Assembly (NCBI GenBank): GCA_038891035.1
Contig: JAWAEW010000002.1
Span: 22,476-86,475 of the forward strand
Origin: Candidatus Anstonellaceae archaeon
GTDB taxonomy: Archaea > Micrarchaeota > Micrarchaeia > Anstonellales > Anstonellaceae
DNA length: 64,000 bases
Direction of reading: 5' to 3'
Part shown: positions 6,448 to 45,740 of the stretch, one piece after another
How positions within the stretch are numbered: the first letter of the stretch is position 1
Layout: each line of letters starts with the position of its first letter
Notes under the pieces: generated by a model
What the model was told of the DNA's origin: nothing
The model's database searches: none
Seen by the model: only the letters and a program-made list of their open reading frames with translations
Made by a program: the position numbers and the translations under genes

Positions 6448-7485
6448 TTATGCAAGCGCCCCGACAAAACCACCTATAACTGTTTTACAGATATAGAAGA
6501 TGAAAAGAGCAGCAAGTGCAAGTGGTGGAAAATATTTTAGTCCAAAAAGTAATTTCCCCTCCGCAATTACTCCTACTAAAATAGAAGTCAATATTGCTGT
6601 TCCTACAATGATCACTATGGTAAGATCATCGATAAATTTGATGTCAAGCTTAACCTTTGGCGTGGAAAAGCCACCTATCATGCTTTGGCTGGCACCAGTG
6701 CCGATATTAGACTGTATTTTGGTGAAAACTGCAAGAAATTGAGAAGAAATTGCAAGAAGCAGTGGCAATCCAAAAACCAATATGAAAACTATAAAAATTG
6801 CATAAGTCTTGGTATTGACAATCATTTGCTTTCGCAGTTCTTCTGTTTCTCTAATTTCTTCTGCCGAAGTCTCAAGTAGATAGGCCAGCTTTCCACCTGA
6901 GCGCAAGCCGTTCTCAAAAAACAAAATTGTCCGCCGCAGGATTGAACTGTCGATTGTAGCTGTTAGTTGGCGCAATGCATCTGCAAATGATTCGCTTCCT
7001 AAAGATAAGGATGAAACATAAAGGATTTCTGACTGCAGGGGTCCAAATTCAGGCCTTGCCGCGGCTTGAAATGCAGCAAAAGGGGTCATGCCAGAGCGCA
7101 TGTTTGCTGCCACCATCAAAAGAAAATCCGGAAGGACGGCGTCCACTCTTTGAGTTCTTTCAGTTATAAGATAATAAAGGTGCATATAGATCAAGATTGC
7201 AGCAGCCAAAGCAAAGAGAATGCCCAGCCCAAAGCTTATGACAAGTTTCCCAGCCAAGGTCGGCGGATTAAGGATGGGGTATGCAGATAGGTCAAAAAAA
7301 CGGAAAATGCTGACTGGAAGAAGAGCACCAACAATTCCAAATAAGATAACTATAAGAAGACGGGAGCCAAGCCAAAGTTCTGGATTTGTTTCTATGCCAG
7401 CATAAGCAAGAAGCTGCGAGATTTTGTCTTTTGGGCGTGGCTTGAAAAATGTTGAAAATCGTTTTTCAACTAAATATTTTTTCAT
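6448..7485 (-). CDS. type II secretion/type IV pilus platform protein, TadC/FlaJ-like (T2SSF domain)
   Basis: 345 aa polytopic membrane protein with a cytoplasmic T2SSF-like segment (LPDFLLMVAANMRSGMTPFAAFQAA...). Confidence 0.6.
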   Translation of the reverse strand: MKKYLVEKRFSTFFKPRPKDKISQLLAYAGIETNPELWLGSRLLIVILFGIVGALLPVSIFRFFDLSAYPILNPPTLAGKLVISFGLGILFALAAAILIYMHLYYLITERTQRVDAVLPDFLLMVAANMRSGMTPFAAFQAAARPEFGPLQSEILYVSSLSLGSESFADALRQLTATIDSSILRRTILFFENGLRSGGKLAYLLETSAEEIRETEELRKQMIVNTKTYAIFIVFILVFGLPLLLAISSQFLAVFTKIQSNIGTGASQSMIGGFSTPKVKLDIKFIDDLTIVIIVGTAILTSILVGVIAEGKLLFGLKYFPPLALAALFIFYICKTVIGGFVGALA

Positions 7486-7492
7486 AGAACCA

Positions 7493-8407
7493 CTAATCGC
7501 TAAACAGGCTTGGTCTTTTCATTTTGACGTAAGCAATGATGGCCATCTGACCTAAAAATCCAATTCCAACAACAGCTGAAAGAACTTCTGGTGTAACACC
7601 AAGCATCCCAAATACTGAAAAAATTACGAGGACGGTTGTTCCTATAGTAGGGAGTACGGCTGCAACCATCAGATATATCAGAATTATGAAGTTGAGTTCT
7701 GCATTGAATGATTTGAAAAGCGAAAACTGGTAGTCTACCAGCAATTTGACTATGCTTCGAAGGGTAGAGGACAGATTAGCGCCTGCTCTAATTGCAGTAA
7801 CGAGTTGCCATGAGACCTTTTTGAGATAGACCGACTGAGTCTTAATGGCCATATTTTCCAGTTCTTCTAAAAGAGGACTTCCTCCCCTAACGTTATTTGC
7901 AACTTCTTTAAATGCCGGCCCTACGTACTTGTAGTTTGAGTTTCCGATGTTTTCTATCGCATTGAAAAGCGGTATTCCAGAATTCACCTGTATTAGCATA
8001 TCACGCATGACAAAAATAAGCTCATGGTCTATCTTTGCTGCAATGCTCCTTGCAATAAGGCGAGGGAAAGCCAAATGAAGCAGAAGGAAAAAAAGAAAAC
8101 TGATTGCAAAAGAAAGGAATATTATAAGACCTTTAACAGGTGAAGGAAGAGTAGGGCTCAGCGTTGCAATTACGCCCACGACAATAGATATAAGTGCGGA
8201 CCAAATTGCGGCTGAAACTGCCGCAACTCCACAATAATATTCTGCCGGAAATTCAAGACCTATAGATCTTAGGTCATATCTTATTGATGGGTAAAATGCA
8301 AGGACTTTTAAGCCGATACCTTTCAGTCGCGCTCCTAAAGTGGGGACTGATGAGATTGGTAAAAGCATGACCGGAATGCGAACCGGCTGAGTTGTCATAA
8401 GAATCAC
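7493..8407 (-). CDS. type IV pilus platform protein, TadB/FlaJ-like (T2SSF domain)
   Basis: 304 aa membrane protein with a T2SSF-like segment (IFVMRDMLIQVNSGIPLFNAIENIG...). Separate gene, 8 nt from the downstream paralog. Confidence 0.6.
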   Translation of the reverse strand: MILMTTQPVRIPVMLLPISSVPTLGARLKGIGLKVLAFYPSIRYDLRSIGLEFPAEYYCGVAAVSAAIWSALISIVVGVIATLSPTLPSPVKGLIIFLSFAISFLFFLLLHLAFPRLIARSIAAKIDHELIFVMRDMLIQVNSGIPLFNAIENIGNSNYKYVGPAFKEVANNVRGGSPLLEELENMAIKTQSVYLKKVSWQLVTAIRAGANLSSTLRSIVKLLVDYQFSLFKSFNAELNFIILIYLMVAAVLPTIGTTVLVIFSVFGMLGVTPEVLSAVVGIGFLGQMAIIAYVKMKRPSLFSD

Positions 8408-8409
8408 GG

Positions 8410-10140
8410 CTATTTTTTACTTCCAATAGCTCGCTTGGCTATTTCTAAGATTTCATTTGGCTTGCTGTAATAAAGAGACATTATTCGGCCTACTGACTCC
8501 ATATCAGAAAGCTTGTTCTCAATCATCCATCTTATAATAGTGGCCCTGTTCTTTATATCTTGGTATATTTCCTCTTTGGTCATGCCTGTATGAAGGTTAA
8601 TTTCCTTGAGGTATTTGTTTGGCTCGCCTACCATTTCAAATGTATCAGTGCGTGGGCGCCATCTGTAAATTACATTGGTTGTTATTTCCTCGTCTTTGGC
8701 ACCTGGAACTATTTCGCAAATTTCCAAGGTTCTCCTAACATTCTTCCTCCTATCACGATATTGGACTACAATAAGGTTGACTGCTTCGAGGTCAGATGGA
8801 GGAAGGCTGATTGGGGGGCTAGTAAGCCTTCTTATAGCCTGCATCCCCGTATCAGCGTGCAAAGTTGCTGCAACAGAGTGGCCTGTGTGCATAGCCTCGA
8901 ACAATACTTCAGCTTCTCTTTGCCTTCTCATTTCACCAAGCAAGATTCTATCTGGCCGCATACGAAGCGAGGTAACCATCAAATCAAGCATTGTAACTTC
9001 ACCTAAGCCTTCTGCATTTGGATTTCGAGTTAAAAGAGGTACCCAGTTCCACTGGTAATGTGGCAGCATAAGCTCTCTGGTATCCTCTATTGTGACAATA
9101 CGCTGATTTGGAGGAATAAATGATGCCAGTGCGTTCAAAGCTGTAGTTTTTCCGGATGCTGTGCCGCCTGCAACTAAGATGTTCATTTCATAATGTATTG
9201 CCTGCCACAGCATTCCTGCCATTTCCGGTGTCATGGAGTAGCCTGGTTCACCCACAAGATTTACAATTGTCCATGGATTTCTTGCAAAGCGCCTAATTGT
9301 AATTGTGTTCCCATGTGCAGAAATCGGTGCAAGAGTAGAGCAAACTCTATCTCCGGTTTCAAGCCTAGCATCCAGTATTGGTGTTAAGTTTGCAATTTGT
9401 CTCCCAACTCGGCGTGCAATTTGGGAAGAATAATTGAAGATAGATTCTTCGTCTGGCATGTAAATATTTGACTTAAGCCAGCCAAACTTGCGATGATATA
9501 CTCCAATTGGGGTTTTTGAATTGTTAATAATAATTTCCTCAAGCCAGTCATCGTGGTTGATAATCTCTATCTCTCCTAACCCAAACAACTTATGCAAAAG
9601 CATTCCAACCAGAACTTCATCAACCTCCTTTCCGAGGTGGAACTGCCGAATATAATTGGTTATCGTAAGCTTGAATTCCTCGCGTGCTTTGGCTGCTTTT
9701 TCAATATCTGAAACATCAGACTGTGCACCGGCAGGTATTGCCCGCAAAAGTTCGTCTTTTATGAGGTCCAGAAAAATCTTGGTTGCAGTACCAAACTCAA
9801 CTAAGGTCAGGATATAGTGCTTTTCTCTTTCAGTATCTAATATCATTACACTTGCTGGCACTCCATCTGCTGAAAACATATAGCTGGCCAACACCTTTCC
9901 CTTTGTTGCACCGACTTCGGGCTTTGGTGGCTCAGCCGGCAGGATCCTGAAAGATACTGTTGGCTTTTCAGTTATGCTTAATGGGTAATGCAAATCTAAG
10001 ACCCCGCCCTTTTCAAGCACTGCACAGATAAGCTCAACGGTTTCTACCGGCATGTGTAGATATTTTGAGAGAATTTCAACACTGATATTTTTTTTGCGCT
10101 GTGCAAGTGAAACAAGCTGGTCTATCTTTGTCTCAAACAT
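8410..10140 (-). CDS. type IV pilus/archaellum-family assembly ATPase (FlaI/TadA/VirB11 superfamily)
   Basis: Walker A VAGGTASGKTT, Asp box IVTIEDTRE, His box, and an N-terminal extension, as in archaeal FlaI-like ATPases. Confidence 0.85.
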   Translation of the reverse strand: MFETKIDQLVSLAQRKKNISVEILSKYLHMPVETVELICAVLEKGGVLDLHYPLSITEKPTVSFRILPAEPPKPEVGATKGKVLASYMFSADGVPASVMILDTEREKHYILTLVEFGTATKIFLDLIKDELLRAIPAGAQSDVSDIEKAAKAREEFKLTITNYIRQFHLGKEVDEVLVGMLLHKLFGLGEIEIINHDDWLEEIIINNSKTPIGVYHRKFGWLKSNIYMPDEESIFNYSSQIARRVGRQIANLTPILDARLETGDRVCSTLAPISAHGNTITIRRFARNPWTIVNLVGEPGYSMTPEMAGMLWQAIHYEMNILVAGGTASGKTTALNALASFIPPNQRIVTIEDTRELMLPHYQWNWVPLLTRNPNAEGLGEVTMLDLMVTSLRMRPDRILLGEMRRQREAEVLFEAMHTGHSVAATLHADTGMQAIRRLTSPPISLPPSDLEAVNLIVVQYRDRRKNVRRTLEICEIVPGAKDEEITTNVIYRWRPRTDTFEMVGEPNKYLKEINLHTGMTKEEIYQDIKNRATIIRWMIENKLSDMESVGRIMSLYYSKPNEILEIAKRAIGSKK

Positions 10141-11709: not shown

Positions 11710-14700
11710 TTAGGAGTTCAGTGTTGTAATGCTAACAGTAAAACCTTGGTTGTACAATGCACGTATTTCATCTTCTGAGAGTGCTCTTTTGAATATTTGG
11801 ACTTCATCGATTATGCCTTCATAAGGCTTATTGAGTGAAGGAGAATTTCCTATAATTAGTCTTGGGTAAGTCTGGCCCAGATCTCCTGAAACATCACCAG
11901 TTGCATAAAGTACTCCGTTAATGTAAATAAAGCCGACCCCATCTTTTCTGCTTACTGTGATATGGGTCCACTCGTCTGTGGCTAATTCGATGGGCGATGA
12001 TATTACTTTATTTGCTGCAATAAAGTTCAGATAACCATCTGACAACTCAAGGGCGAAGCCAGAATTCTGAATTTGGTTACTTATGATTTGGCTGGAGATT
12101 ACTGATTTGGGCTTAACCCATAAAGAAACTGTGAAATCATCTCTGCCCTGGAGCACAGGCGATGGGACCGAAAGATGGGAGAATAGAGATGTGAAGTTGT
12201 ATGCTCCACCTATTTTACCAAATGGAGTCCAGTTTGCTGAAACATTTGCATGAAGCAGAAGAGGAGAGTAATCAACCGATATTCCTTCTACTTCTCTATA
12301 ATCGAATGGCAATGAAAGTAGCGCATCAGGAAGCTGCCTTTTTAGGCGAAGCTTGGCATTATAATTTGCAGTAATATTGCTAAATGAAGCGGATGGCTTA
12401 TAAAAGACATCAAGGTCAAGGCTGCACTTGTCTTGATATAAGCCTTTGTAGTGATTTTCGATTTCCCGTTCAGATAGAGCTCTCTTATAGAACCTTATTT
12501 CATCAATCAGTCCTCTGAAACCGTTGCTTCCTGAACTATCAGATGCACCTATAAAGAATGGGGACGATGAGTTTATCCTCAAAAGGCTGAACTGACCTGA
12601 TGCAACCGATTTATCATCAAGATAGATGTTGTATTCGCCTAATCTTCTAACAGAAACTGACACCATATGCCAATTCCCATCTGATAAATCGAGTAGATGA
12701 CTTATCTGTGAAGACTGGCCACTTCCATTTGCACTATAAAATGAGATGTTGAGGAAATTAGCAGGATTCAAAAACCAATCAATCCCCTGTGCTGCCCCAA
12801 ATTCCTGTCCTAGCTGATAAAATAGCCTTGCAAAGCTTCCTTGGCCGGTATAAGGCCTTATCCATACAGACATAGTAAAATCATTGATCTCTGTAACTGA
12901 AACATCGTCTAGATAGACTACTTGGTTGTTTAGAGGTGTATAAAACCGAAGTTCAATGACTGCATTTTGAAGTGTAGAAAATGGTTGTGTGATCCTTTCA
13001 AAAGTAGTGCTTAGCTGCTTTGTGATAAATATGTCTGCACCGGGATTCAATGAATTCCACTGCCCGGAAGGCGCCAAGTACATTTGGTTTTGCACATCAA
13101 CAATTGCATATCTAATCGCATCATTTTGAAGCTCGCCTCTCGCCCAAAACTCAAGCAAATAATTCCTGTTTCCTTTCAGTGCTGAATAAAGAGCTGAACT
13201 GTAAATATACGACGAGGGATCGCTAGAGTAGATTTTAACTGAAGTCGAGCCTGACTTTACTATGTTGTGCTCTGGCTCAAATATGCCATTTCCTTGCTTT
13301 ATCCAATTGTTGAAAAGGAAGGATTGGCTGCCTACACCTGGAGGGATAATGCAGTACTTTACAGATCCGCTTGTTCTTGTTACATTGCACACTGCATTTG
13401 GATCACAGCAGGGATGAACATCGTCACAGCGAGAATTGGTTGGGAAGCAGGTTGTGCATCGCCCATAATCTTGTATTCCCTCAAAAAAGAAGGGAAGTTT
13501 TTTTATCTTGAAAAAGTAGTCGCGAGAATAGGTTTGCTGCTCTTGTTGTGCAACTGTATTTACAAGGTCACAGAAAAGCCCCTCGCAGCATTGCGTGTCA
13601 TTAGTGCAGAGGGCACCTTGCTGACCGCATGTAGGAAGAGGAGGCGCACATCTGAAGGTTTGTTCCCCGTCAAAAAGACACCTGTTTGAGCAGCATTCTG
13701 AGTGATTCCTACAGGTATGGTTGAGAGGAAGGCAGTCCACACACTTTGAGAAATTAGCAGAGGTGCTCAGTAGATCGCAAAGCCCGGAGCAACATTGACT
13801 GTTTTCAGTGCAATTGGTGGTGCTGTTCGTTTGAATGCAAACTGAGCATATCTTTTGGGATGAGCCTGCGGGTGCTGCACAAATACTGCATGTCTGCGGG
13901 CAGTCTGAAGAAATGGTGCAGCTCTGGTTGCATCCTATTCCGCATCGTGGTTGGCTTTCTTCATCTATAAAGCATCTACCACTGCAACATTCGTTGCTGG
14001 TTCCATCTTGGCAAGAGGCAAGTAACTGCCCATTTTGAAGGCAACAGATTCCGTTTAAACAGATTGAGGGGGGGCAACAAGGGATTTTGTTGTCTCCTGA
14101 ACACGGCTGGGAAGCATTTGCGCAATTTAGGTTTGTTAATTCAGCTACATTAGTAGGATTAGAACGATCAGACTTGGCAACAAGATTAGGATTGTTTTTG
14201 GCTTCTGCTTGTATGTATAATTGAACGCTTGTACCATTTTCAAACGTCGAAGTGTTCAATGGTTCTTGCTTACGATACAAAAACAAAATTGGTATTATGT
14301 TGCCCGGCCTCTGCGCAACAAAGACATATGAAATATTAATATATGGTGTGCTGTCAGGACAATTTTGTATGCAGTATACGTTGGACCCTCGAATAACAGT
14401 TGGTGTGGGTGAAATAATTGGAGTGGGTGGTTTTTTAGGTTTGCAAACTCCATTCTCGCATCTTAATCCTATCGTTTTATCGCTATCACAGCAATCAGAA
14501 TCCTTAGTACATTGTTGCCCTCCTTGTGAGCATGCAGAACACCTTCCATTAATGCAAACTGAATTCGAACAGCAATCAGAATCTCTGAGACAGCCATAAG
14601 TCCCACGTGGCCAGCAAGGAACACACTTGCCATCTCTCATCATATAGAACTTAACTGAGCTTGAAGACGGGATTGCAGACCATGGTTGGCGCTCCTCTTC

Positions 14701-15468
14701 ACCTAAAAGGCATTTGCCGGAACAGCATTCAGAATGATAAGAACAGTTTTGCCCATTAGGAATGCATGAACATATGCCATTTATGCACATGGAACTTATA
14801 CAGCAATCAGCATCTGAGCTGCAAGGCCCGTATCCTCTTGGCCAGCATGAAACACATGTACCATTGAGGGGAGTTTCGACGAGCTTTGCAAGCCCAGAAA
14901 AAAGATTTTCTGATGATAAAAACGCCCCACCATCATTGTTGGTGCGTATAAGACATTTGGAAGAGCAGCAATCATTATTTGATTGACAGACTGCACCTTG
15001 TCCTTTGCATGTGGATGTGCTATCCCAGTGACAACCCACTGCTACACATACAGTTTCGTTATAAATGGAAGTGCATGGTAGAGATGGCCCACTGCTTACA
15101 TCATCACATGGAAATGCTGTAAAAGCATTAAATCTGCAATACCCTCCTGCAATATTGCATGCACCAGCCGGATTGTGACTTTTAGAGGCACAGTCGGCTT
15201 CATTTAGAGAAGAACAGAGAGTTGGAGCTGTACCGCTTGCACATGTACAATTGTTTGTCACTAGCTCATATCTCAGATTGCAATATCCTCGCAATTCAAA
15301 TTCGTAGCAAACCGAGGGATAATCGATCGGACCGCATCCGTCGGATGTACACCATGGGTGATTTAGGGAAGTACAGCTTACGTTAGGAGAATTTTGGTTT
15401 TGCGGCACGCAGCCAGCAAAAATGGCTGAAGAAAGCAATCCAAACAGCAACAAAGACAACATTCTCAT
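11710..15468 (-). CDS. 1252-aa surface protein: lipobox signal, repeated knottin-like 6-Cys modules, Pro/Thr linker, two C-terminal LamG_3 (ConA-like lectin) domains
   Basis: MRMLSLLLFGLLSSAIFAGC lipobox. At least 6 repeats with the pattern C-x6-C-x5-CC-x4-C-x4-C (e.g. CWPRGTYGCLRDSDCCSNSVCINGRC). Two LamG_3 signature motifs (IDEIRFYKRALSEREI and IDEVQIFKRALSEDEI). Confidence 0.7.
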   Translation of the reverse strand: MRMLSLLLFGLLSSAIFAGCVPQNQNSPNVSCTSLNHPWCTSDGCGPIDYPSVCYEFELRGYCNLRYELVTNNCTCASGTAPTLCSSLNEADCASKSHNPAGACNIAGGYCRFNAFTAFPCDDVSSGPSLPCTSIYNETVCVAVGCHWDSTSTCKGQGAVCQSNNDCCSSKCLIRTNNDGGAFLSSENLFSGLAKLVETPLNGTCVSCWPRGYGPCSSDADCCISSMCINGICSCIPNGQNCSYHSECCSGKCLLGEEERQPWSAIPSSSSVKFYMMRDGKCVPCWPRGTYGCLRDSDCCSNSVCINGRCSACSQGGQQCTKDSDCCDSDKTIGLRCENGVCKPKKPPTPIISPTPTVIRGSNVYCIQNCPDSTPYINISYVFVAQRPGNIIPILFLYRKQEPLNTSTFENGTSVQLYIQAEAKNNPNLVAKSDRSNPTNVAELTNLNCANASQPCSGDNKIPCCPPSICLNGICCLQNGQLLASCQDGTSNECCSGRCFIDEESQPRCGIGCNQSCTISSDCPQTCSICAAPAGSSQKICSVCIQTNSTTNCTENSQCCSGLCDLLSTSANFSKCVDCLPLNHTCRNHSECCSNRCLFDGEQTFRCAPPLPTCGQQGALCTNDTQCCEGLFCDLVNTVAQQEQQTYSRDYFFKIKKLPFFFEGIQDYGRCTTCFPTNSRCDDVHPCCDPNAVCNVTRTSGSVKYCIIPPGVGSQSFLFNNWIKQGNGIFEPEHNIVKSGSTSVKIYSSDPSSYIYSSALYSALKGNRNYLLEFWARGELQNDAIRYAIVDVQNQMYLAPSGQWNSLNPGADIFITKQLSTTFERITQPFSTLQNAVIELRFYTPLNNQVVYLDDVSVTEINDFTMSVWIRPYTGQGSFARLFYQLGQEFGAAQGIDWFLNPANFLNISFYSANGSGQSSQISHLLDLSDGNWHMVSVSVRRLGEYNIYLDDKSVASGQFSLLRINSSSPFFIGASDSSGSNGFRGLIDEIRFYKRALSEREIENHYKGLYQDKCSLDLDVFYKPSASFSNITANYNAKLRLKRQLPDALLSLPFDYREVEGISVDYSPLLLHANVSANWTPFGKIGGAYNFTSLFSHLSVPSPVLQGRDDFTVSLWVKPKSVISSQIISNQIQNSGFALELSDGYLNFIAANKVISSPIELATDEWTHITVSRKDGVGFIYINGVLYATGDVSGDLGQTYPRLIIGNSPSLNKPYEGIIDEVQIFKRALSEDEIRALYNQGFTVSITTLNS

Positions 15469-17049: not shown

Positions 17050-18090
17050 TTATTTTCCACGATACCAGCCACGAATGATAACAAAACCATAATCATTTTG
17101 AAGCTGATTGGTATTTTTTGCAAATGGGACAGTTAGAGATTGGATCTCTCCACCTCCATACAGGCATCCAGGTCTGTTGACCATGTATAAAATATTTTCA
17201 GGATTGCTGTAAAGAAGCTGCACTTCTTGATGAGAAAGAACACGGTCGTAAAGGCGCACTTCATCCAAAATGCTGTCGCTGTTGAATCCTATTTGGAGAG
17301 GGTTGTTATTACTATTTGGTGCCATGGCAAAATCATCAGTGTCTGCCGCAGTTCCATCTACATAAAGAGTAGCCACTCCTTCTATATCAAAAGTTGCAAC
17401 GATGTGATGCCAGTTGCCATCAGCAATATATGGTCCCTCCAACCATGATTCATCAGATGAAAATATGTGGAAAAAGACGTTTCCTTCTTCAGTAATGCCA
17501 ACAGAATATTTTTCCTCAAATGAAAATAATAATTGTTGATTGCCAATATTTTGACTTTTAACCCATAGAGAGACTGAAAAACTTTCTTGCTCAAAAAGAG
17601 GAGAAAACTGAACTGTTCCGTATGTTGTAGAAGAGAAATGAATGGCCCCGCCCGCTTTCCCATTTTGGACAAATATAGGGGATCCGATTAAAATCCCAAA
17701 AAGTCTGTTTGGAGTGGAGTCATAGATGATCGAACCTGCCACTTCATCAAGCTTCCAATATCCTACAAGACCATCCGCAAGCTGATTGCTAAAACCAACC
17801 ACCTCTATGCAAATTGAAGGAGAAGTCGCACTTAACACCTCTCTTATGGAAGCCGTGGTCTGTGTTAGGTCTTGTGGAGGAGAGAGTAGGCCCTTTTTTG
17901 AAAGCACTGTTGCAACATCTTGTAAGTAAGTTCTCAAAAGCTGGGTTTTAAAGTCTGAATCTTGAGTGTTGCCATAGAAAGTAAAGGCAATAAAGGTGGC
18001 CAGTATAATCATGAATATTGAGATTGCTGCATCAAGACTGAGGAATACTCCCCTTAGCCTCGAGTTAGAGATTTTCATTTTTTCTTCCAT
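17050..18090 (-). CDS. pilin-like protein with C-terminal LamG_3 lectin domain
   Basis: N-terminus SRLRG|VFLSLDAAISIFMIILATF is pilin-like. C-terminal motif ILDEVRLYDRVLSHQEVQLLY is the LamG_3 signature. Confidence 0.55.
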   Translation of the reverse strand: MEEKMKISNSRLRGVFLSLDAAISIFMIILATFIAFTFYGNTQDSDFKTQLLRTYLQDVATVLSKKGLLSPPQDLTQTTASIREVLSATSPSICIEVVGFSNQLADGLVGYWKLDEVAGSIIYDSTPNRLFGILIGSPIFVQNGKAGGAIHFSSTTYGTVQFSPLFEQESFSVSLWVKSQNIGNQQLLFSFEEKYSVGITEEGNVFFHIFSSDESWLEGPYIADGNWHHIVATFDIEGVATLYVDGTAADTDDFAMAPNSNNNPLQIGFNSDSILDEVRLYDRVLSHQEVQLLYSNPENILYMVNRPGCLYGGGEIQSLTVPFAKNTNQLQNDYGFVIIRGWYRGK

Positions 18091-27464: not shown

Positions 27465-27578
27465 GAGGGCATTAAACTCTCAAAGAATATTTAATACTTG
27501 CAGAAATTTGAATGCTGCCTTTGTGCTTTCTGGAAACATTTAAATACTTGTAAGCTGAATTTTGTTGCGGCGATCAGT

Positions 27579-28640
27579 ATGGACAGCCTTGTGAAGTCCG
27601 TGCTAGGAGAGCAAGAGCCAGCTCCGACAGAAAATTTTGGCTCAGACCAGATTAAGATTGTGACAGTTGGAGTAGGCGGCGGCGGAAACAACACTATAAA
27701 CCGCCTTATTCGCTCGGGAGTCAAGGGGTGCGAGCTAATTGCGGTGAATACCGACAGGCAGCACCTCAATATGATTCACGAGAAAGCCAAGAAAATCCTT
27801 ATCGGTAAGACTATTACCAAAGGACTTGGCGCAGGCGGATACCCAGAAACCGGTGCAAAGGCCGCAGAAATTGACAGACCACTGATAGAAAAGGAGCTTG
27901 AAGGGGCCCACTTGTGCTTTATTTGCGCAGGTATGGGCGGAGGCACAGGCACTGGAGCAGCACCTGTCATTGCAGAGATTGCAAAGGAGCAAGGTGCTAT
28001 CGTAGTTGCCATGGTGACCTATCCGTTCAACCTCGAGCGCGCAAGGCGGGCAAAGGCAGACGAAGGTATTGCAAAGCTTCGCAAGCACGTCGATTCTGTA
28101 ATAGTGCTTGACAATAACAGGCTGGTGAAACTTGTTCCAAATCTGCCGATGAATGAGGCTTTTGCAGTAGCAGACGAGATTCTTGCAAAGGCAGTCGGTG
28201 GATTAGTCTGGACAATTACACAGCCATCATTGATTAACATTGATTTTGCAGATGTCCGCTCTATTGTGCAGGGTGGAGGAGTCGGCTTCATTGCAGTAGG
28301 AGAAGGGAAAGGCACTGACAAAGTCCGCGGAGCAGCAGAAGGTGTGCTTAAGAACAAGCTGCTGGACGTGGACTATGAAGGAGCAAACGGCGCGCTGATT
28401 CACATCTCAGGCGGAGCAGATCTCACACTTGGGGATGCCATTAAAGCAGGTGAAATAATCACCGAAAAGATGGATCCGCAAGCAAATGTCAAGTGGGGTG
28501 CAAGACTCATACCTGGCTATGACGGCAAGCTTGAAATAGTCGCCATAGTGACTGGGGTGAAAGGCGCAAATGTTTTTGGTGCATCTTCAGATGAACCAAG
28601 AAAAGAAGTCTCCTACTCTGACATAGAGATAATTGGATAG
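27579..28640 (+). CDS. ftsZ: cell division GTPase FtsZ (paralog 1)
   Basis: GGGGNN tubulin signature, GGGTGTG T4 loop, NLE. Start set at MDSLVKS (ATG 27579) rather than the upstream alternative start used by the track. Confidence 0.9.
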   Translation: MDSLVKSVLGEQEPAPTENFGSDQIKIVTVGVGGGGNNTINRLIRSGVKGCELIAVNTDRQHLNMIHEKAKKILIGKTITKGLGAGGYPETGAKAAEIDRPLIEKELEGAHLCFICAGMGGGTGTGAAPVIAEIAKEQGAIVVAMVTYPFNLERARRAKADEGIAKLRKHVDSVIVLDNNRLVKLVPNLPMNEAFAVADEILAKAVGGLVWTITQPSLINIDFADVRSIVQGGGVGFIAVGEGKGTDKVRGAAEGVLKNKLLDVDYEGANGALIHISGGADLTLGDAIKAGEIITEKMDPQANVKWGARLIPGYDGKLEIVAIVTGVKGANVFGASSDEPRKEVSYSDIEIIG

Positions 28641-28856: not shown

Positions 28857-29909
28857 ATGGGGGTTGGAAATATGTTTGAAAATGCGGCAGGTTCTCGGAA
28901 CGATGAATTAATTTCAAACGAGAATATTCGTATTGCAGTCGTAGGTGTTGGGGGAGGCGGTTGCAATACTGTTGACCGCATGACAAGAAACGGCATACGC
29001 TCTGCACAAACGATTGCAATAAACACAGATCAGCTCCACCTGAAAATAGTGCAAGCCCACAAGAGAGTCTTAATTGGATCTACAATTACTAAGGGACTTG
29101 GAGCTGGAGGTTTCCCTGAAGTCGCAGAAAAATGTGCAGAAGTTTCGAAAGAAAAGCTGAGAGAAGTGCTTTCGGAGAAAGAGCTCGTCTTCGTGTGTGC
29201 AGGTATGGGCGGAGGCACAGGCACTGGCGCATCACCTGTAATTGCGCAAATTGCAAAAGAGCAAGGAGCGATCGTTGTATCTGTTGTAACGATGCCATTC
29301 AGACTTGAAAGAGCAAGGATGCAGAAGGCTTTGTGGGGACTGCAGCGCCTTGCAGCTCACTCTGATACCGTGATTGCAATTGAGAATGACCGCCTTGCAA
29401 AATATGTTCCTAATTTGCCAATCAATGAGGCATTCAACCTGGCGGATGCAATAACAAGCAAGGCAATAACAGGAATTGCGGACACCATCATGCTTCCTTC
29501 TCTTATGAACATTGATTTTGCAGACGTAAAATCTGTAATGGAAAACGGAGGCTTTGCACTCCTTTCGATGGGGGAAGGAAGAGGCCCCGACAGGATCGAC
29601 CAAGTAGTAAGAAACACTCTCGAGCAGCCTTTGCTTGACATCTCAACAGAAGGCGCAAAGGGAGCACTTTTGCACATAAGCGGAGGGCCACAGCTTACAC
29701 TTGGAGAAGGCATCCAAATTGGAGAAAAAATTTCCGAGAGCTTTGACTTGAACGCAGACGTCAAAATAGGAGCCAGGCTAGATCCATCATTAGGCGACAC
29801 GATAACCTGCGCTGCAATTATTACCGGCCTGAAGAATCCGTACGTTCAGCCGAGGCCGCCAGAAGAAGAAAAGAAAGTGATAGAGCTGGATGCAATTTCA
29901 TATCTTTAG
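28857..29909 (+). CDS. ftsZ: cell division GTPase FtsZ (paralog 2)
   Basis: GVGGGGCNTV and GGGTGTGASPVIAQIAKEQGAIVV. Distinct C-terminal region from paralog 1. Confidence 0.9.
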   Translation: MGVGNMFENAAGSRNDELISNENIRIAVVGVGGGGCNTVDRMTRNGIRSAQTIAINTDQLHLKIVQAHKRVLIGSTITKGLGAGGFPEVAEKCAEVSKEKLREVLSEKELVFVCAGMGGGTGTGASPVIAQIAKEQGAIVVSVVTMPFRLERARMQKALWGLQRLAAHSDTVIAIENDRLAKYVPNLPINEAFNLADAITSKAITGIADTIMLPSLMNIDFADVKSVMENGGFALLSMGEGRGPDRIDQVVRNTLEQPLLDISTEGAKGALLHISGGPQLTLGEGIQIGEKISESFDLNADVKIGARLDPSLGDTITCAAIITGLKNPYVQPRPPEEEKKVIELDAISYL

Positions 29910-35183: not shown

Positions 35184-35269
35184 GCCCCTGTAGCTCATCG
35201 GTAGAGCGGTTGTCTTGTATCCATTCGCAAGAAAACAACAGGTAGCGAGTTCAATTCTCGCCGGGGGCT
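35184..35269 (+). tRNA. tRNA-Thr (anticodon UGU) with ~14-nt intron at 37/38
   Basis: Acceptor GCCCCTG/CGGGGGC, D-arm GCTC-ATCGGTAG-AGC, anticodon stem GTTGT/ACAAC, loop CTTGTA[intron]A, T-arm GCGAG-TTCAATT-CTCGC. Confidence 0.7.
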
Positions 35270-39475: not shown

Positions 39476-40200
39476 CTTTTCTTTTTTGCTTTTTTTGGCT
39501 TTTTTTGTTCTTCTTCAGCTTGAGCCATGGTTTGCTGCTGCACTTCAGTTTGCGCTTCCGGCTGGTTGGGAGCTTCTTGCGGCTCTTGTAGGGAAGATTC
39601 TTTTTGCTTTTCTGACTCAAATGCAGAAAGCGGAGTGGTAAATTCATCATAAGAGCCGATCTTGTTTTTTGCCATCAAGTACTCCCGAGCCAAAAGATAG
39701 AAGATAAGGGCTAGCGAACGCCGCCCCTTATTGTTGCATGGAACGACCCAGTCGATAAACATAGTCACATTGTCAGTATCGCAAAGACCGATTATGGGGA
39801 TGCCGACTTTGCCTGCCTCGATTACTGCTTGTTTTTCACCTTTCGGGTCGCACACTAAAAGCAATTTCGGCTCAACAAAGTCCTCTCTTGCAACATTGGT
39901 GAACAGACCAGGTATAAACCTACCTTGAAACACCTTTATTCCCGTAAGGGCAGAGAATACAGAGGCGGCATTACCAGAGTAAGTTCTTGAGGCAACGACT
40001 AGTATCTCTTCGGGCTCATATCTACCAAGCATTTTGGCTGCAAGTCGCAACCTTTCGTCAATTTTGCGCAAATCAAGCACATAAAGGCCGTCGTTTCTCA
40101 TTTTGTATATGAATTGCCTCATATCTACAGTCTTAAGTTTGGTTCCGATATGTATTCCAGCCTCAAGATAGGCTTCTTGCTTTATCAGCAAACTATCCAT
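39472..40200 (-). CDS. rps2: 30S ribosomal protein S2 (uS2) with ~45-aa acidic/Q-rich C-terminal tail
   Basis: LLIKQEAYLEAGIHIGTK and VLDLRKIDERLRLAAK in the conserved core. C-terminal tail ...QEPQEAPNQPEAQTEVQQQTMAQAEEEQKKPKKAKKKS. Confidence 0.9.
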   Translation of the reverse strand: MDSLLIKQEAYLEAGIHIGTKLKTVDMRQFIYKMRNDGLYVLDLRKIDERLRLAAKMLGRYEPEEILVVASRTYSGNAASVFSALTGIKVFQGRFIPGLFTNVAREDFVEPKLLLVCDPKGEKQAVIEAGKVGIPIIGLCDTDNVTMFIDWVVPCNNKGRRSLALIFYLLAREYLMAKNKIGSYDEFTTPLSAFESEKQKESSLQEPQEAPNQPEAQTEVQQQTMAQAEEEQKKPKKAKKKS

Positions 40201-40269
40201 ATTTTCACCTTTTTGCGGATGGCTGCAGGCACTTTCACACCACTCTCAGCACAACCGCTTGCGCATAAA

Positions 40270-40374
40270 TGGGGCCATCGAGATTTGAATTTTCGGAATC
40301 CGGCAAAATGCCAAGACCCACTCGAATCACCAGCACCCCAAGCTGGCAGGATAGCCAGGTTACCCCATGGCCCC
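40270..40374 (-). tRNA. tRNA-Pro (anticodon GGG) with ~31-nt intron inside the T-arm
   Basis: Acceptor GGGGCCA/TGGCCCC (7 bp), anticodon arm CCAGC-TTGGGGT-GCTGG. T-stem TCGAG...CTCGA is interrupted by a 31-nt insertion before the loop TTCAAAT. The D-arm is imperfect (3 bp plus a U-U mismatch). Confidence 0.45.
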
Positions 40375-40525
40375 TTATTTGTCGAAAGGCAATTAAAAAT
40401 CTTCCACCTTCCAAAGTGCGCCGGCAAAAGCTTCCAAAGCCTTGCCGGGCTTCAAGCAACCAACGTATGCAAAAAGATATATAAAAGATGAAGATGGGGA
40501 TAATGCAGAAAAAACTGGAATTAGC

Positions 40526-40741
40526 TTATCTTTTGCTTTTAACTGATTTGATTGTCATGAGGCGTTTTCTGCCACAGTTTTTGCATTCGATTTGGATGAT
40601 CTTTGTGATTTTTAGTTCTGGAGAAAGGCATTTATGGCAATAGGCATGTTCCAGTTCTTCTTCGAGGTTTGTTTTCGTCAGCTTTTCGGCGCCGTATGGC
40701 TTGTCATCGCAATCAATCAGGTGGGCCTGGGTTGCTTTCAT
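40526..40741 (-). CDS. small zinc-ribbon protein (CxxC...CxxC), possibly RpoP/Zn-ribbon r-protein-like
   Basis: 71 aa with YCHKC and ECKNCG separated by 15 aa. Sits between RpoN and S2, where RpoK and enolase sit in most archaea. Confidence 0.3.
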   Translation of the reverse strand: MKATQAHLIDCDDKPYGAEKLTKTNLEEELEHAYCHKCLSPELKITKIIQIECKNCGRKRLMTIKSVKSKR

Positions 40742-43996: not shown

Positions 43997-44668
43997 TCAC
44001 TTCTTTGCTGCTTCTTGTTTCTTTGCAGGCGAAGGCTTGGCTGCGCTCTTCTCTTGGGCAGCCGCACCTGTTTGAGCTGCCGCTGCGCTGCCTGCTTTTG
44101 CAAGAGTTGATTTGCGAATCACTCCAACAGTCATGCCAGTCCTTCCCGTGCTGCGGGTGTGCTGGCCTCTGACTTTTTGACCATATGTATGCCTGAAACC
44201 TCTCCAAGTATATGCTTCCTTTTCATGGTCTATATCCTGCTTGACTGCATAAACCAGGTCAGCTCCAACTACGTGCATATCTTTCCCAGTCATAATGTCT
44301 TTTCTTCTATTAAGCATCCAAGAGGGGATTCCGTATTCGAGTGGATTGTGAATGATATGCTCAAGCTTAGATACTTGCTCTTCTGAAAGCTCACCTACTA
44401 ATGTATTTTCGTTTATGCCCAAAACTCCATAAGCCTTGGAAGATATAACTTGACTTAGGTTTATTCCGATGCCTTTGATGGATGTAAGAGCACGCCATAG
44501 TGGAAGATTCCCTTTTACATCTTTTCCTGCGATCCGGACCACGCCTTTTATTTCTTTTCCGGAAGGAGAAACCATCGGCTTTTGCTGCGGCTTTCCTGGC
44601 TGAGGCTGGCCTCTTCGAGTATCAGCTTGGCCCTCTGGCCGCTCTCTTTTTCCTTGCTTATCTTTCAT
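43997..44668 (-). CDS. rps13: 30S ribosomal protein S13 (uS13) with N- and C-terminal low-complexity extensions
   Basis: Core VRIAGKDVKGNLPLWRALTSIKGIG...RGFRHTYGQKVRGQHTRSTGRTG. C-terminal tail A/K/Q-rich. Confidence 0.9.
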   Translation of the reverse strand: MKDKQGKRERPEGQADTRRGQPQPGKPQQKPMVSPSGKEIKGVVRIAGKDVKGNLPLWRALTSIKGIGINLSQVISSKAYGVLGINENTLVGELSEEQVSKLEHIIHNPLEYGIPSWMLNRRKDIMTGKDMHVVGADLVYAVKQDIDHEKEAYTWRGFRHTYGQKVRGQHTRSTGRTGMTVGVIRKSTLAKAGSAAAAQTGAAAQEKSAAKPSPAKKQEAAKK

Positions 44669-44686: not shown

Positions 44687-44813
44687 CGCCGGGAATGGGA
44701 TTTTTTGGCGGCGCTGCTTGGATTCAAAAAACTCCAAGCACAGCCTGAACCCATACGGCCTTTCGACCACACGCTCTCCAGGCGTGCGCACTACCAGGTT
44801 ATGCGATCCCGGC
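44687..44813 (-). tRNA. tRNA-Ser (anticodon GGA) with ~42-nt intron in the T-loop
   Basis: Acceptor GCCGGGA/TCCCGGC (7 bp), 3-bp D-stem with D-loop TAACCTGGTAG (as in the other Ser tRNAs here), anticodon arm CACGC-CTGGAGA-GCGTG, variable arm GGTC-GAAA-GGCC. T-stem ATGGG...CCCAT encloses TTCA[42 nt, itself two hairpins]AAT. Confidence 0.5.
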
Positions 44814-44822
44814 AATTTCAAA

Positions 44823-45740
44823 TCACCAACCTTTTGGGTAAACCCCCCTTTGCATGAAAATCCTTTTAGGGACAGCCGCAACGCCAGTTTTGGTGACTGT
44901 AAGCTCTGAGGAAGACATCTGGGCACAGGCCACGCCGACAAGTTCCCCTTTTTTGCTTATCAGTGCGACCAGCGAGCCGCGCGTGAAACTCACGTCGTGC
45001 CCCTCGACCCCAGGCGCATACAACGGCGCCCCGGCGCAGACTGCCTCAATGGCAGAGTCCCTAAGGACTATTCTCGGAAGCGCAAGCGCTTCGTCCGCAG
45101 GGATGAGCATGCTGCGGATCCTGCTCTCATCATGCTTTTCTTTTGCCAGCCAAGCTGCATCAGAAAGATCATGAAGGGTGTGGGCAGAGGCTTCTGTTAT
45201 AGAGCCTACGCAGGTCCTTCGAAGCTCAAGCATCTTTGCCCCGCCGAAATACGGGGCAAAATCCTCTACCAGCACACGAATATATGTGCCTGCTTGGCAG
45301 CGCACTTCGAAAAGCACGTCGCTGGAGCGTATTTGGAGAGGCTTAATATAATAAACCTTGCGTTTGCGCGGCTTTTTTGCAACTGCAGATTCTTTCGGAG
45401 GAGTTTGCACTATCTCTCCTACAAACCTTTCAAATACACTGCGAACTTCCTTTTCAGTTGGCTTTGTGCCTGTGCGCATTAGGCAAACATAGGTTTTATC
45501 TTTGCCTGTCATATAGGAAAGGAGTTTGGTTGCTTTTCCAAGGGCGACTGGCAAAACCCCTGAAACTTGAGGGTCCAGCGTTCCGCTGTGACCGCTTTTG
45601 TTTATTCCCAAGATCTTTCTGACCCACGCCGAAACCTCATGGCTGGAAGGGCCCCTCGGCTTGTCTATAATTACAAATGAACAGTCCAAAAGTTGTCTGA
45701 GGCTGCATGACTCTCTGGTAGGAGAAGATATGAATGCCAT
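44823..45740 (-). CDS. cbf5: tRNA/rRNA pseudouridine synthase Cbf5 (H/ACA RNP catalytic subunit) with PUA domain
   Basis: TruB motifs IIDKPRGPSSHEV and HSGTLDPQVSGVLPV. C-terminal PUA. Confidence 0.85.
   Translation of the reverse strand: MAFISSPTRESCSLRQLLDCSFVIIDKPRGPSSHEVSAWVRKILGINKSGHSGTLDPQVSGVLPVALGKATKLLSYMTGKDKTYVCLMRTGTKPTEKEVRSVFERFVGEIVQTPPKESAVAKKPRKRKVYYIKPLQIRSSDVLFEVRCQAGTYIRVLVEDFAPYFGGAKMLELRRTCVGSITEASAHTLHDLSDAAWLAKEKHDESRIRSMLIPADEALALPRIVLRDSAIEAVCAGAPLYAPGVEGHDVSFTRGSLVALISKKGELVGVACAQMSSSELTVTKTGVAAVPKRIFMQRGVYPKGW

Follow-up and report, generated by a model that had tools for sequence, protein, structure and literature searches.

A tRNA-Ser(GGA) gene with a predicted protein-spliced T-loop intron between cbf5 and the S13 gene of a Micrarchaeota archaeon

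Does the spacer between the genes for Cbf5 and ribosomal protein S13 hold a tRNA-Ser(GGA) gene interrupted in its T-loop, and if so, where does the insert begin and end and how might it be removed? A preliminary description of the window (the whole 64,000-nt stretch of DNA analysed here) had proposed such a gene with an intron of about 42 nt. It placed the gene correctly, in a spacer that it gave as 150 bp and that measures 154 nt between these two neighbours:

44823-45740, minus strand: Cbf5 (Pfam TruB_N, PUA and DKCLD)
43997-44668, minus strand: ribosomal protein S13 (open reading frame and Pfam), with S4 next after it

We read 44813→44687 on the minus strand as a tRNA-Ser(GGA) gene with a 43-nt intron of the bulge-helix-bulge (BHB) type between C56 and A57, which sequence comparison suggests is removed by protein splicing; we put the probability of this reading at about 0.9. 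The gene is divided as follows:

44687-44813, minus strand: tRNA-Ser(GGA), whole gene, a 127-nt precursor body with G1 at 44813 and G73 at 44687
44747-44813, minus strand: 5' exon, 67 nt
44704-44746, minus strand: putative intron, 43 nt at position 56/57, sequence AGGCUGUGCUUGGAGUUUUUUGAAUCCAAGCAGCGCCGCCAAA
44687-44703, minus strand: 3' exon, 17 nt

The 5' exon carries the 5' strand of the acceptor stem, the D arm, the anticodon arm, the variable arm, the T-stem strand AUGGG and U54, U55 and C56; the 3' exon continues with A57-U60 (AAAU), CCCAU, the acceptor 3' strand UCCCGGC and the discriminator G73. The acceptor stem is GCCGGGA/TCCCGGC, and the D arm, GCAU-AACCUGGUA-GUGC, is followed by G26. 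In the anticodon arm, CACGC-CUGGAGA-GCGUG, the GGA anticodon lies at 44779-44777 (minus strand). The variable arm UGGUCGAAAGGCCGU has 15 nt with a 4-bp stem, GGUC/GGCC, and the T stem AUGGG/CCCAU encloses 50 nt. Read from 44813 to 44687 on the minus strand, with the intron in brackets, the order is GCCGGGA UC GCAU AACCUGGUA GUGC G CACGC CUGGAGA GCGUG UGGUCGAAAGGCCGU AUGGG UUC [AGGCUGUGCUUGGAGUUUUUUGAAUCCAAGCAGCGCCGCCAAA] AAAU CCCAU UCCCGGC G; the CCA end is not encoded at this locus. Joining the exons gives an 84-nt class II cloverleaf with the T-loop UUCAAAU. The long variable arm and G73 are identity elements of tRNA-Ser, and this layout is common to the window's Ser(CGA) and Ser(UGA) genes. 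The tRNA presumably reads UCC and UCU. All of the elements that had been listed at the outset (D arm, G26, anticodon arm, long variable arm, T stem) are present and the ends then given for the gene are exact. The intron was rightly placed in the T-loop but is 43 nt long, the 50 nt between the stem strands minus a 7-nt loop.

Standard tRNA finders miss this gene because the T-loop intron interrupts it. On the unspliced locus ARAGORN made no call, and the Rfam tRNA model (RF00005, gathering cut-off 29 bits) scored 23.4 bits (E 0.017 in a 500-nt search) with no T arm placed. When 41-45 nt were deleted at the T-loop, ARAGORN called tRNA-Ser(gga), and after the exact 43-nt deletion (44746-44704) the minimum-energy fold was a perfect cloverleaf at -37.4 kcal/mol. 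As a control, 28 intergenic gaps in the window went through the identical delete-and-scan procedure. With the gaps holding an Rfam tRNA set aside, it fired three times: at the Ser-GGA locus (8 hits), at 40200-40634 (28 tRNA-Pro hits) and at one spurious site.

Homologues define the exon-intron boundaries. Comparison of Cbf5 places the window in the Micrarchaeota (Anstonellaceae-like, DPANN), with 96% identity to one MAG annotated as Candidatus Anstonellaceae and 58-77% to 11 other Micrarchaeota/Micrarchaeia MAGs, and the same tRNA follows cbf5 in all 12. A 28-nt exon pattern retrieved 59 further metagenome loci. All 12 genome loci keep the order cbf5 - tRNA-Ser(GGA) - S13, as do the metagenome loci long enough to show neighbours, which makes more than 50 related loci in all. 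The relatives' exons always total 84 nt and are 92-100% identical to those of the window, a conservation partly inflated because the metagenome loci were fished out by an exon pattern; the T-loop inserts are 33-62 nt long and 45-81% identical. The insert sits at the same point in 43 of the 43 parsed loci of the clade, in lineages with Cbf5 about 56-77% identical. Ten more distant loci, which differ in their variable arm and whose Cbf5 is only 41-47% identical, have no insert. Their T arm is AUGGG-UUCAAAU-CCCAU, exactly the product predicted from precise removal of the window's insert, and five of them, tested against the Rfam tRNA model, scored 44-46 bits. The uninterrupted gene of this sister clade occupies the same syntenic locus. 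Comparison with related lineages, suggested in the preliminary description, thus finds the insert kept across the clade and absent from distant loci whose loop is TTCAAAT.

The joined exons also covary as a tRNA. Across 19 distinct spliced sequences, 98.9% of the cells of the cloverleaf alignment are paired, against 31-56% when the partners are slid, and 24 cells are doubly changed; shuffles give 6.3, and none of 500 attains 24. Compensatory pairs bridge the insert at 5:68 (G-C/A-U), 7:66 (A-U/G-C/U-A/G-U) and 49:65. The original call of a tRNA-Ser(GGA) with a T-loop intron is supported by the homologues' cloverleaf, by this covariation and by the TTCAAAT loop of the insert-free relatives.

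To locate the splice sites we applied the archaeal cutting rule, under which the cut on each strand falls within a 3-nt bulge, two bases 3' from the 4-bp helix H. All insert-bearing loci have the layout ...GGG UUC N-(h' strand)...(h' strand)-GCC(C/U/A)-AA AAAU CCC..., which in the window gives the following elements:

44749-44752, minus strand: exon strand of helix H, G51 G52 G53 U54
44706-44709, minus strand: intron strand of helix H, GCCA (GCCC in most relatives)
44746-44748, minus strand: 5' bulge U55 C56↓A, with the 5' cut predicted at 44747/44746 by the BHB rule
44703-44705, minus strand: 3' splice region A A↓A57, with the 3' cut predicted at 44704/44703; no outer helix
44743-44745, minus strand: 5' strand of helix h', GGC, in covarying pairs (GC, AU, GU and CG types)
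44710-44712, minus strand: 3' strand of helix h', GCC
44715-44740, minus strand: intron-internal hairpin UGCUUGGA - GUUUUUUGAA - UCCAAGCA, 8 bp, with similar hairpins in relatives

Helix H of the window forms three of its four pairs, with a G51·A mismatch; among 26 distinct variants, H (GGGU with GCCC, GCCU or GCUC) is fully paired, 4/4, in 24, and 98% of its cells are paired. Helix h' follows directly after the 5' bulge and has 2-15 bp, in forms such as GGC/GCC, GGAG/CUUC, GGUGCU/AGCAUC and GAGAACC/GGUUCUU. Taken together over the 26 variants, H and h' have 90.6% of cells paired (at most 58% when slid) and 20 doubly changed cells against 5.6 in shuffles, a count that 0 of 500 shuffles reach. 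The terminal helix of the insert covaries while its interior drifts; the 3' end G-C-C-N-A-A and the G at intron position 2 are invariant or nearly so. The BHB motif, which had been proposed as a check, is present in part: H, the 3-nt 5' bulge and h' are found, but the strict hBHBh' form is absent, since after AA↓A only U50-A58 could pair and the 3' site lies in an open strand. With no outer exon-exon helix h, the motif is the relaxed HBh' form, a recognised subclass (PMC3239211).

Other registers were tried and rejected. The split first proposed, TTCA-(42 nt)-AAT, corresponds to register 57/58; as the window's intron starts with A, it yields the identical product there. The introns of most relatives start with U or C, so this split would leave them a pyrimidine at 57, and H would lose one pair. 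The insert-free homologues read TTCAAAT, and the split is accordingly refined to TTC-(43 nt)-AAAT, position 56/57. Taking the T stem as the outer helix of a strict BHB, with the 3' cut at 59/60, leaves H, UUCN/NAAA, with at most two pairs, and splicing would yield the loop UUCNGGU, without A58. An H of GUUC, as in the window's Leu-UAG gene, finds no GAAC partner here.

The insert might instead have disabled the gene, leaving a pseudogene while another locus supplies tRNA-Ser(GGA). Rejection of the locus by standard finders would fit, and the genome is seen here only in part, so that a second locus could lie elsewhere. Decay, however, does not predict an insert retained at the same point in every one of the 43 parsed clade loci, exons that show no deterioration, or synteny with the uninterrupted gene of the sister clade. 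The near-invariant bases of the splice motif and the covariation of h' point to selection on excision rather than decay, and we consider inactivation very unlikely.

With C56/A57 as the predicted boundary, the proposed splicing would run as follows. In the precursor, the intron's GCCA (GCCC in most relatives), just before its terminal AA, would pair with G51-U54 and displace the 3' strand of the T stem. U55, C56 and the first intron base would bulge out, and the intron ends would pair as h' (GGC/GCC), extended by the 8-bp hairpin. A broad-specificity splicing endonuclease would then cut at UC↓A and AA↓A, two bases 3' of H on each strand, and an RtcB-type ligase would join the exons into the 84-nt class II tRNA with the T-loop UUCAAAU. 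Sequence comparison shows the gene, its boundaries as set by the homologues, the covarying helices and the retention of the intron throughout the clade; the cleavage, the identity of the enzyme, the ligation and a role of the tRNA in translation are inferred. H can form only if the T stem opens. Computed energies are -50.4 kcal/mol for the splice-competent conformer, -52.4 for a conformer that keeps the T stem and -57.2 kcal/mol for the global minimum, so in this model the splice-competent state is accessible, not favoured. Folded as a whole, the precursor has a minimum-energy structure unlike a tRNA, which is usual for tRNA precursors and which we take as uninformative.

Were the insert instead retained, the mature tRNA would have a T-loop expanded to 50 nt. 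Nothing speaks directly for this, and only a 7-nt loop allows the T54-A58 and G18/G19-U55/C56 contacts. The insert ranges over 33-62 nt, with 130 nt in one relative, and what is conserved in it is an endonuclease site, not a structural domain. We regard retention as extremely unlikely.

The Micrarchaeota endonuclease in this scheme would be of the epsilon2 type. A Pfam scan of most window open reading frames of at least 90 aa contained no splicing endonuclease gene, and a tblastn search with M. jannaschii EndA as query returned nothing from the window and 450 kb of related loci. The enzyme type is accordingly assumed from ARMAN-2, as the gene was not found in the scanned DNA.

Of the two hairpins first assigned to the insert, one stands, the hairpin at 44740-44715 with arms TGCTTGGA/TCCAAGCA at 44740-44733 and 44722-44715 (minus strand). 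The other, GCGCCG...CGGCGC, is rejected as a functional intron hairpin: its 3' arm, at 44691-44686, lies outside the insert and consists of the acceptor 3' strand, G73 and one trailer base, so that the pairing competes with the tRNA fold. By eye, the intron contains no RUGAUGA or CUGA boxes of a C/D-box guide RNA. The loop of the standing hairpin holds a run of six U (44731-44726, minus strand), found in some homologous introns and not in all, which could cause some premature termination within the pre-tRNA or between cbf5 and the S13 operon.

This hairpin and U-run raise the question of whether the element is simply a transcription stop or a structured spacer between cbf5 and S13, its likeness to a tRNA being incidental or a relic. 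Archaeal RNA polymerase can stop at oligo-T, and a consensus scan finds one terminator-like site on the minus strand, 44749→44733 followed by GTTTTTT, inside the intron. The scan total, however, is 2 sites against 1.3 +/- 1.2 in shuffles, which is no enrichment, and many homologous inserts (L007, L005 and L058 among them) have no T-run. Nor would a spacer keep 84-nt exons 92-100% identical, with compensatory pairs across the insert, where Cbf5 is only 56-77% identical. S13 has its own ribosome-binding site, GGTGA, just past the tRNA. As S13 lies downstream, the element cannot be its terminator, and the case that the preliminary description had set against its own proposal, hairpins acting as S13 terminators, is not supported. 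We judge a stop or spacer extremely unlikely.

The tRNA-Ser(GGA) gene is one of eight tRNA genes in the window, six of which are interrupted. The other seven are:

29981-29910, minus strand: tRNA-Ala(CGC), no intron
42338-42253, minus strand: tRNA-Leu(GAG), no intron
35184-35269, plus strand: tRNA-Thr(UGU), insert of about 14 nt in the anticodon loop (canonical position)
1474-1371, minus strand: tRNA-Ser(CGA), insert of about 20 nt in the anticodon loop (canonical position), missed by ARAGORN at default settings
31894-31794, minus strand: tRNA-Ser(UGA), insert of about 16 nt in the anticodon loop (canonical position), missed by ARAGORN at default settings
38256-38157, minus strand: tRNA-Leu(UAG), 14-nt intron at 58/59 (38185-38172), H = GUUC/GAAC
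40374-40270, minus strand: tRNA-Pro(GGG), 31-nt intron at 53/54 (40320-40290), missed by ARAGORN and Rfam

Three of the eight have introns in the T arm (Pro at 53/54, Ser at 56/57 and Leu at 58/59), in agreement with the number first proposed. The Pro-GGG intron has H = UUCG/CGAA and h' = GGGUC/GAUUC; the Leu-UAG intron is without h' (a bulge-helix-loop form), and its gene scores 43.7 bits with Rfam and is missed by ARAGORN. Both inserts obey the same cutting rule, and we count them in support of the Ser-GGA intron. In the related locus L026 the order Ser...Leu...Pro is kept and Pro-GGG is uninterrupted (8906-8979). ARAGORN alone found three of the eight window tRNAs, and Ser-GGA and Pro-GGG were missed by both ARAGORN and Rfam at standard thresholds.

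Intron content varies among the relatives, from one to possibly three per tRNA-Ser(GGA) gene. Many of them (L004-L010, L012, L018 and others) have an added 37/38 intron of 12-142 nt, which the window copy is without. L035, with Cbf5 50% identical, has a 130-nt T-loop intron that by eye lies at 59/60, not 56/57; its strict hBHBh' motif uses the T stem for h, UUCA/UGAA for H and CCAUGGGG/CCCUUGG for h', and the bulges are AAA and AAU. At L007-L010, L012, L018, L022, L024, L027, L030, L031, L043, L048, L050, L066 and L068, the start of the gene is preceded, at a distance of 50-113 nt, by a second copy of the tRNA 5' end (GCCGGGGUCGC), after which come one or two hairpins. The two tandem copies, (GCG)CCGGGGUCGC, can pair into a bulge-helix-bulge with H = CCGG/CCGG and bulges GGU, the paired unit being (GCG)CCGG-GGU-CGC, an arrangement that would make a third intron, at 7/8. 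Several observations speak against it: the flanking helices span no more than 1-4 bp, a covarying hairpin (CGGC-X...X'-GCCG) would use these bases too, the upstream copy in L038 is degenerate, and in general the downstream copy by itself makes a complete gene. Birth of an intron through tandem duplication may have left the upstream copy as its trace. A wider reading, to which we give little credence, is that the tRNA-Ser(GGA) family records the origin and turnover of protein-spliced tRNA introns: the 56/57 intron may have been fixed once, in the ancestor of one Micrarchaeota clade; 37/38 introns may come and go, with L035 having a 59/60 intron instead; and the 7/8 intron may have been born by local duplication of the palindromic acceptor sequence. 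We also observed complementarity between tRNA leader and trailer in L004-L006 (GGGAAG...CUUCCC) and L007-L010 (GGGGCA...UGCCCC), co-changing between the groups, which hints at a leader-trailer processing stem in those relatives; it is not evident in the window copy.

The gene lies in a long minus-strand series, 39472-63940. The series begins with L3, L4, L2, S19, L22, S3 ... S4e, L5 ... L32e and L19e, continues with L18, S5, L30, L15, SecY, an adenylate-kinase-like P-loop kinase, L34e and cytidylate kinase (Cmk), and ends with a small KOW-domain protein, Cbf5, tRNA-Ser, S13, S4, S11, RpoD, tRNA-Leu, L18e, L13, S9, tRNA-Pro and S2. We take this order, from the window's Pfam hits and the relatives' neighbours, to be the classical archaeal ribosomal super-cluster. 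The conserved cluster around tRNA-Ser runs cbf5 - tRNA-Ser - S13 - S4 - S11 - RpoD - tRNA-Leu - L18e - L13 - S9, and the three embedded tRNAs (Ser, Leu, Pro) hold their places in relatives such as L026. A literature search on the tRNA-Ser - S13 operon order gave nothing relevant. S13 itself has 223 aa, of which the Pfam domain spans residues 45-177 only; the N- and C-terminal extensions are charged and of low complexity (K/Q/A/P-rich). Elsewhere in the window, two FtsZ paralogues stand side by side (27498-28640 and 28857-29909, plus strand), and tRNA-Ala(CGC) abuts the 3' end of the second on the opposite strand. At 6448-10140, 11710-15468 and 17050-18090 (all minus strand), a type IV pilus-like set (one T2SSE ATPase, two T2SSF proteins) adjoins proteins of 1252 and 346 aa with Laminin_G_3 or concanavalin-like domains, which in a DPANN cell might serve at the cell surface or in attachment to a host.

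Archaeal tRNA introns at non-canonical positions, including 53/54, 56/57 and 59/60, are known, and those at T-arm positions have been described mainly in Crenarchaeota/Thermoproteales and Nanoarchaeota (PMC4090602). The Ser-GGA intron resembles the published 56/57 introns (PMC4090602) in its insertion point, in the pairing of its 3' end with the exon upstream of the 5' cut, in the 3-nt bulge cut two bases 3' of a 4-bp helix, in its relaxed HBh' form and in the predicted return of a canonical 7-nt T-loop on excision. It differs in its host (from the Micrarchaeota, a DPANN lineage), in its isoacceptor, Ser(GGA), and in being inherited across a family-level clade rather than scattered. Another close published case is from the same phylum: according to PMC3239211, 56% of the tRNA genes of Ca. 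Micrarchaeum acidiphilum ARMAN-2 are disrupted, T-loop introns included, against 6 of 8 in the window, and both share a tRNA-Pro(GGG) intron at 53/54. The main text of the ARMAN-2 papers names 53/54 and 59/60, not 56/57 or tRNA-Ser(GGA). As described there, the three-unit epsilon2 endonuclease of ARMAN-2 cuts strict and relaxed motifs in vitro (Fujishima et al., PMC3239211; PMC12397907), and structures of the epsilon2 enzyme are reported (PMC3488258, PMC12397907). Compared with the canonical 37/38 archaeal intron (strict hBHBh'), the enzyme class and cutting geometry would be the same, whereas the window copy's sole intron lies in the T-loop, has no outer helix and would depend on opening of the T stem.

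Since 56/57 introns and T-loop introns of Micrarchaeota are already published, the Ser-GGA intron belongs to a known type, and the picture of how such introns work is unchanged by this case. In practice, tRNA finders at default settings report too few tRNAs for such genomes. Automatic annotation of such DPANN genomes would give an incomplete decoding set, and the hidden genes, read as "missing tRNAs", could be mistaken for genome reduction or host dependence. For the biology of the family, stable inheritance can maintain a T-loop intron among lineages whose Cbf5 is only about 56-60% identical, and the published ARMAN-2 picture of heavily interrupted tRNA genes and a permissive endonuclease extends to an Anstonellaceae-like branch of the Micrarchaeota.
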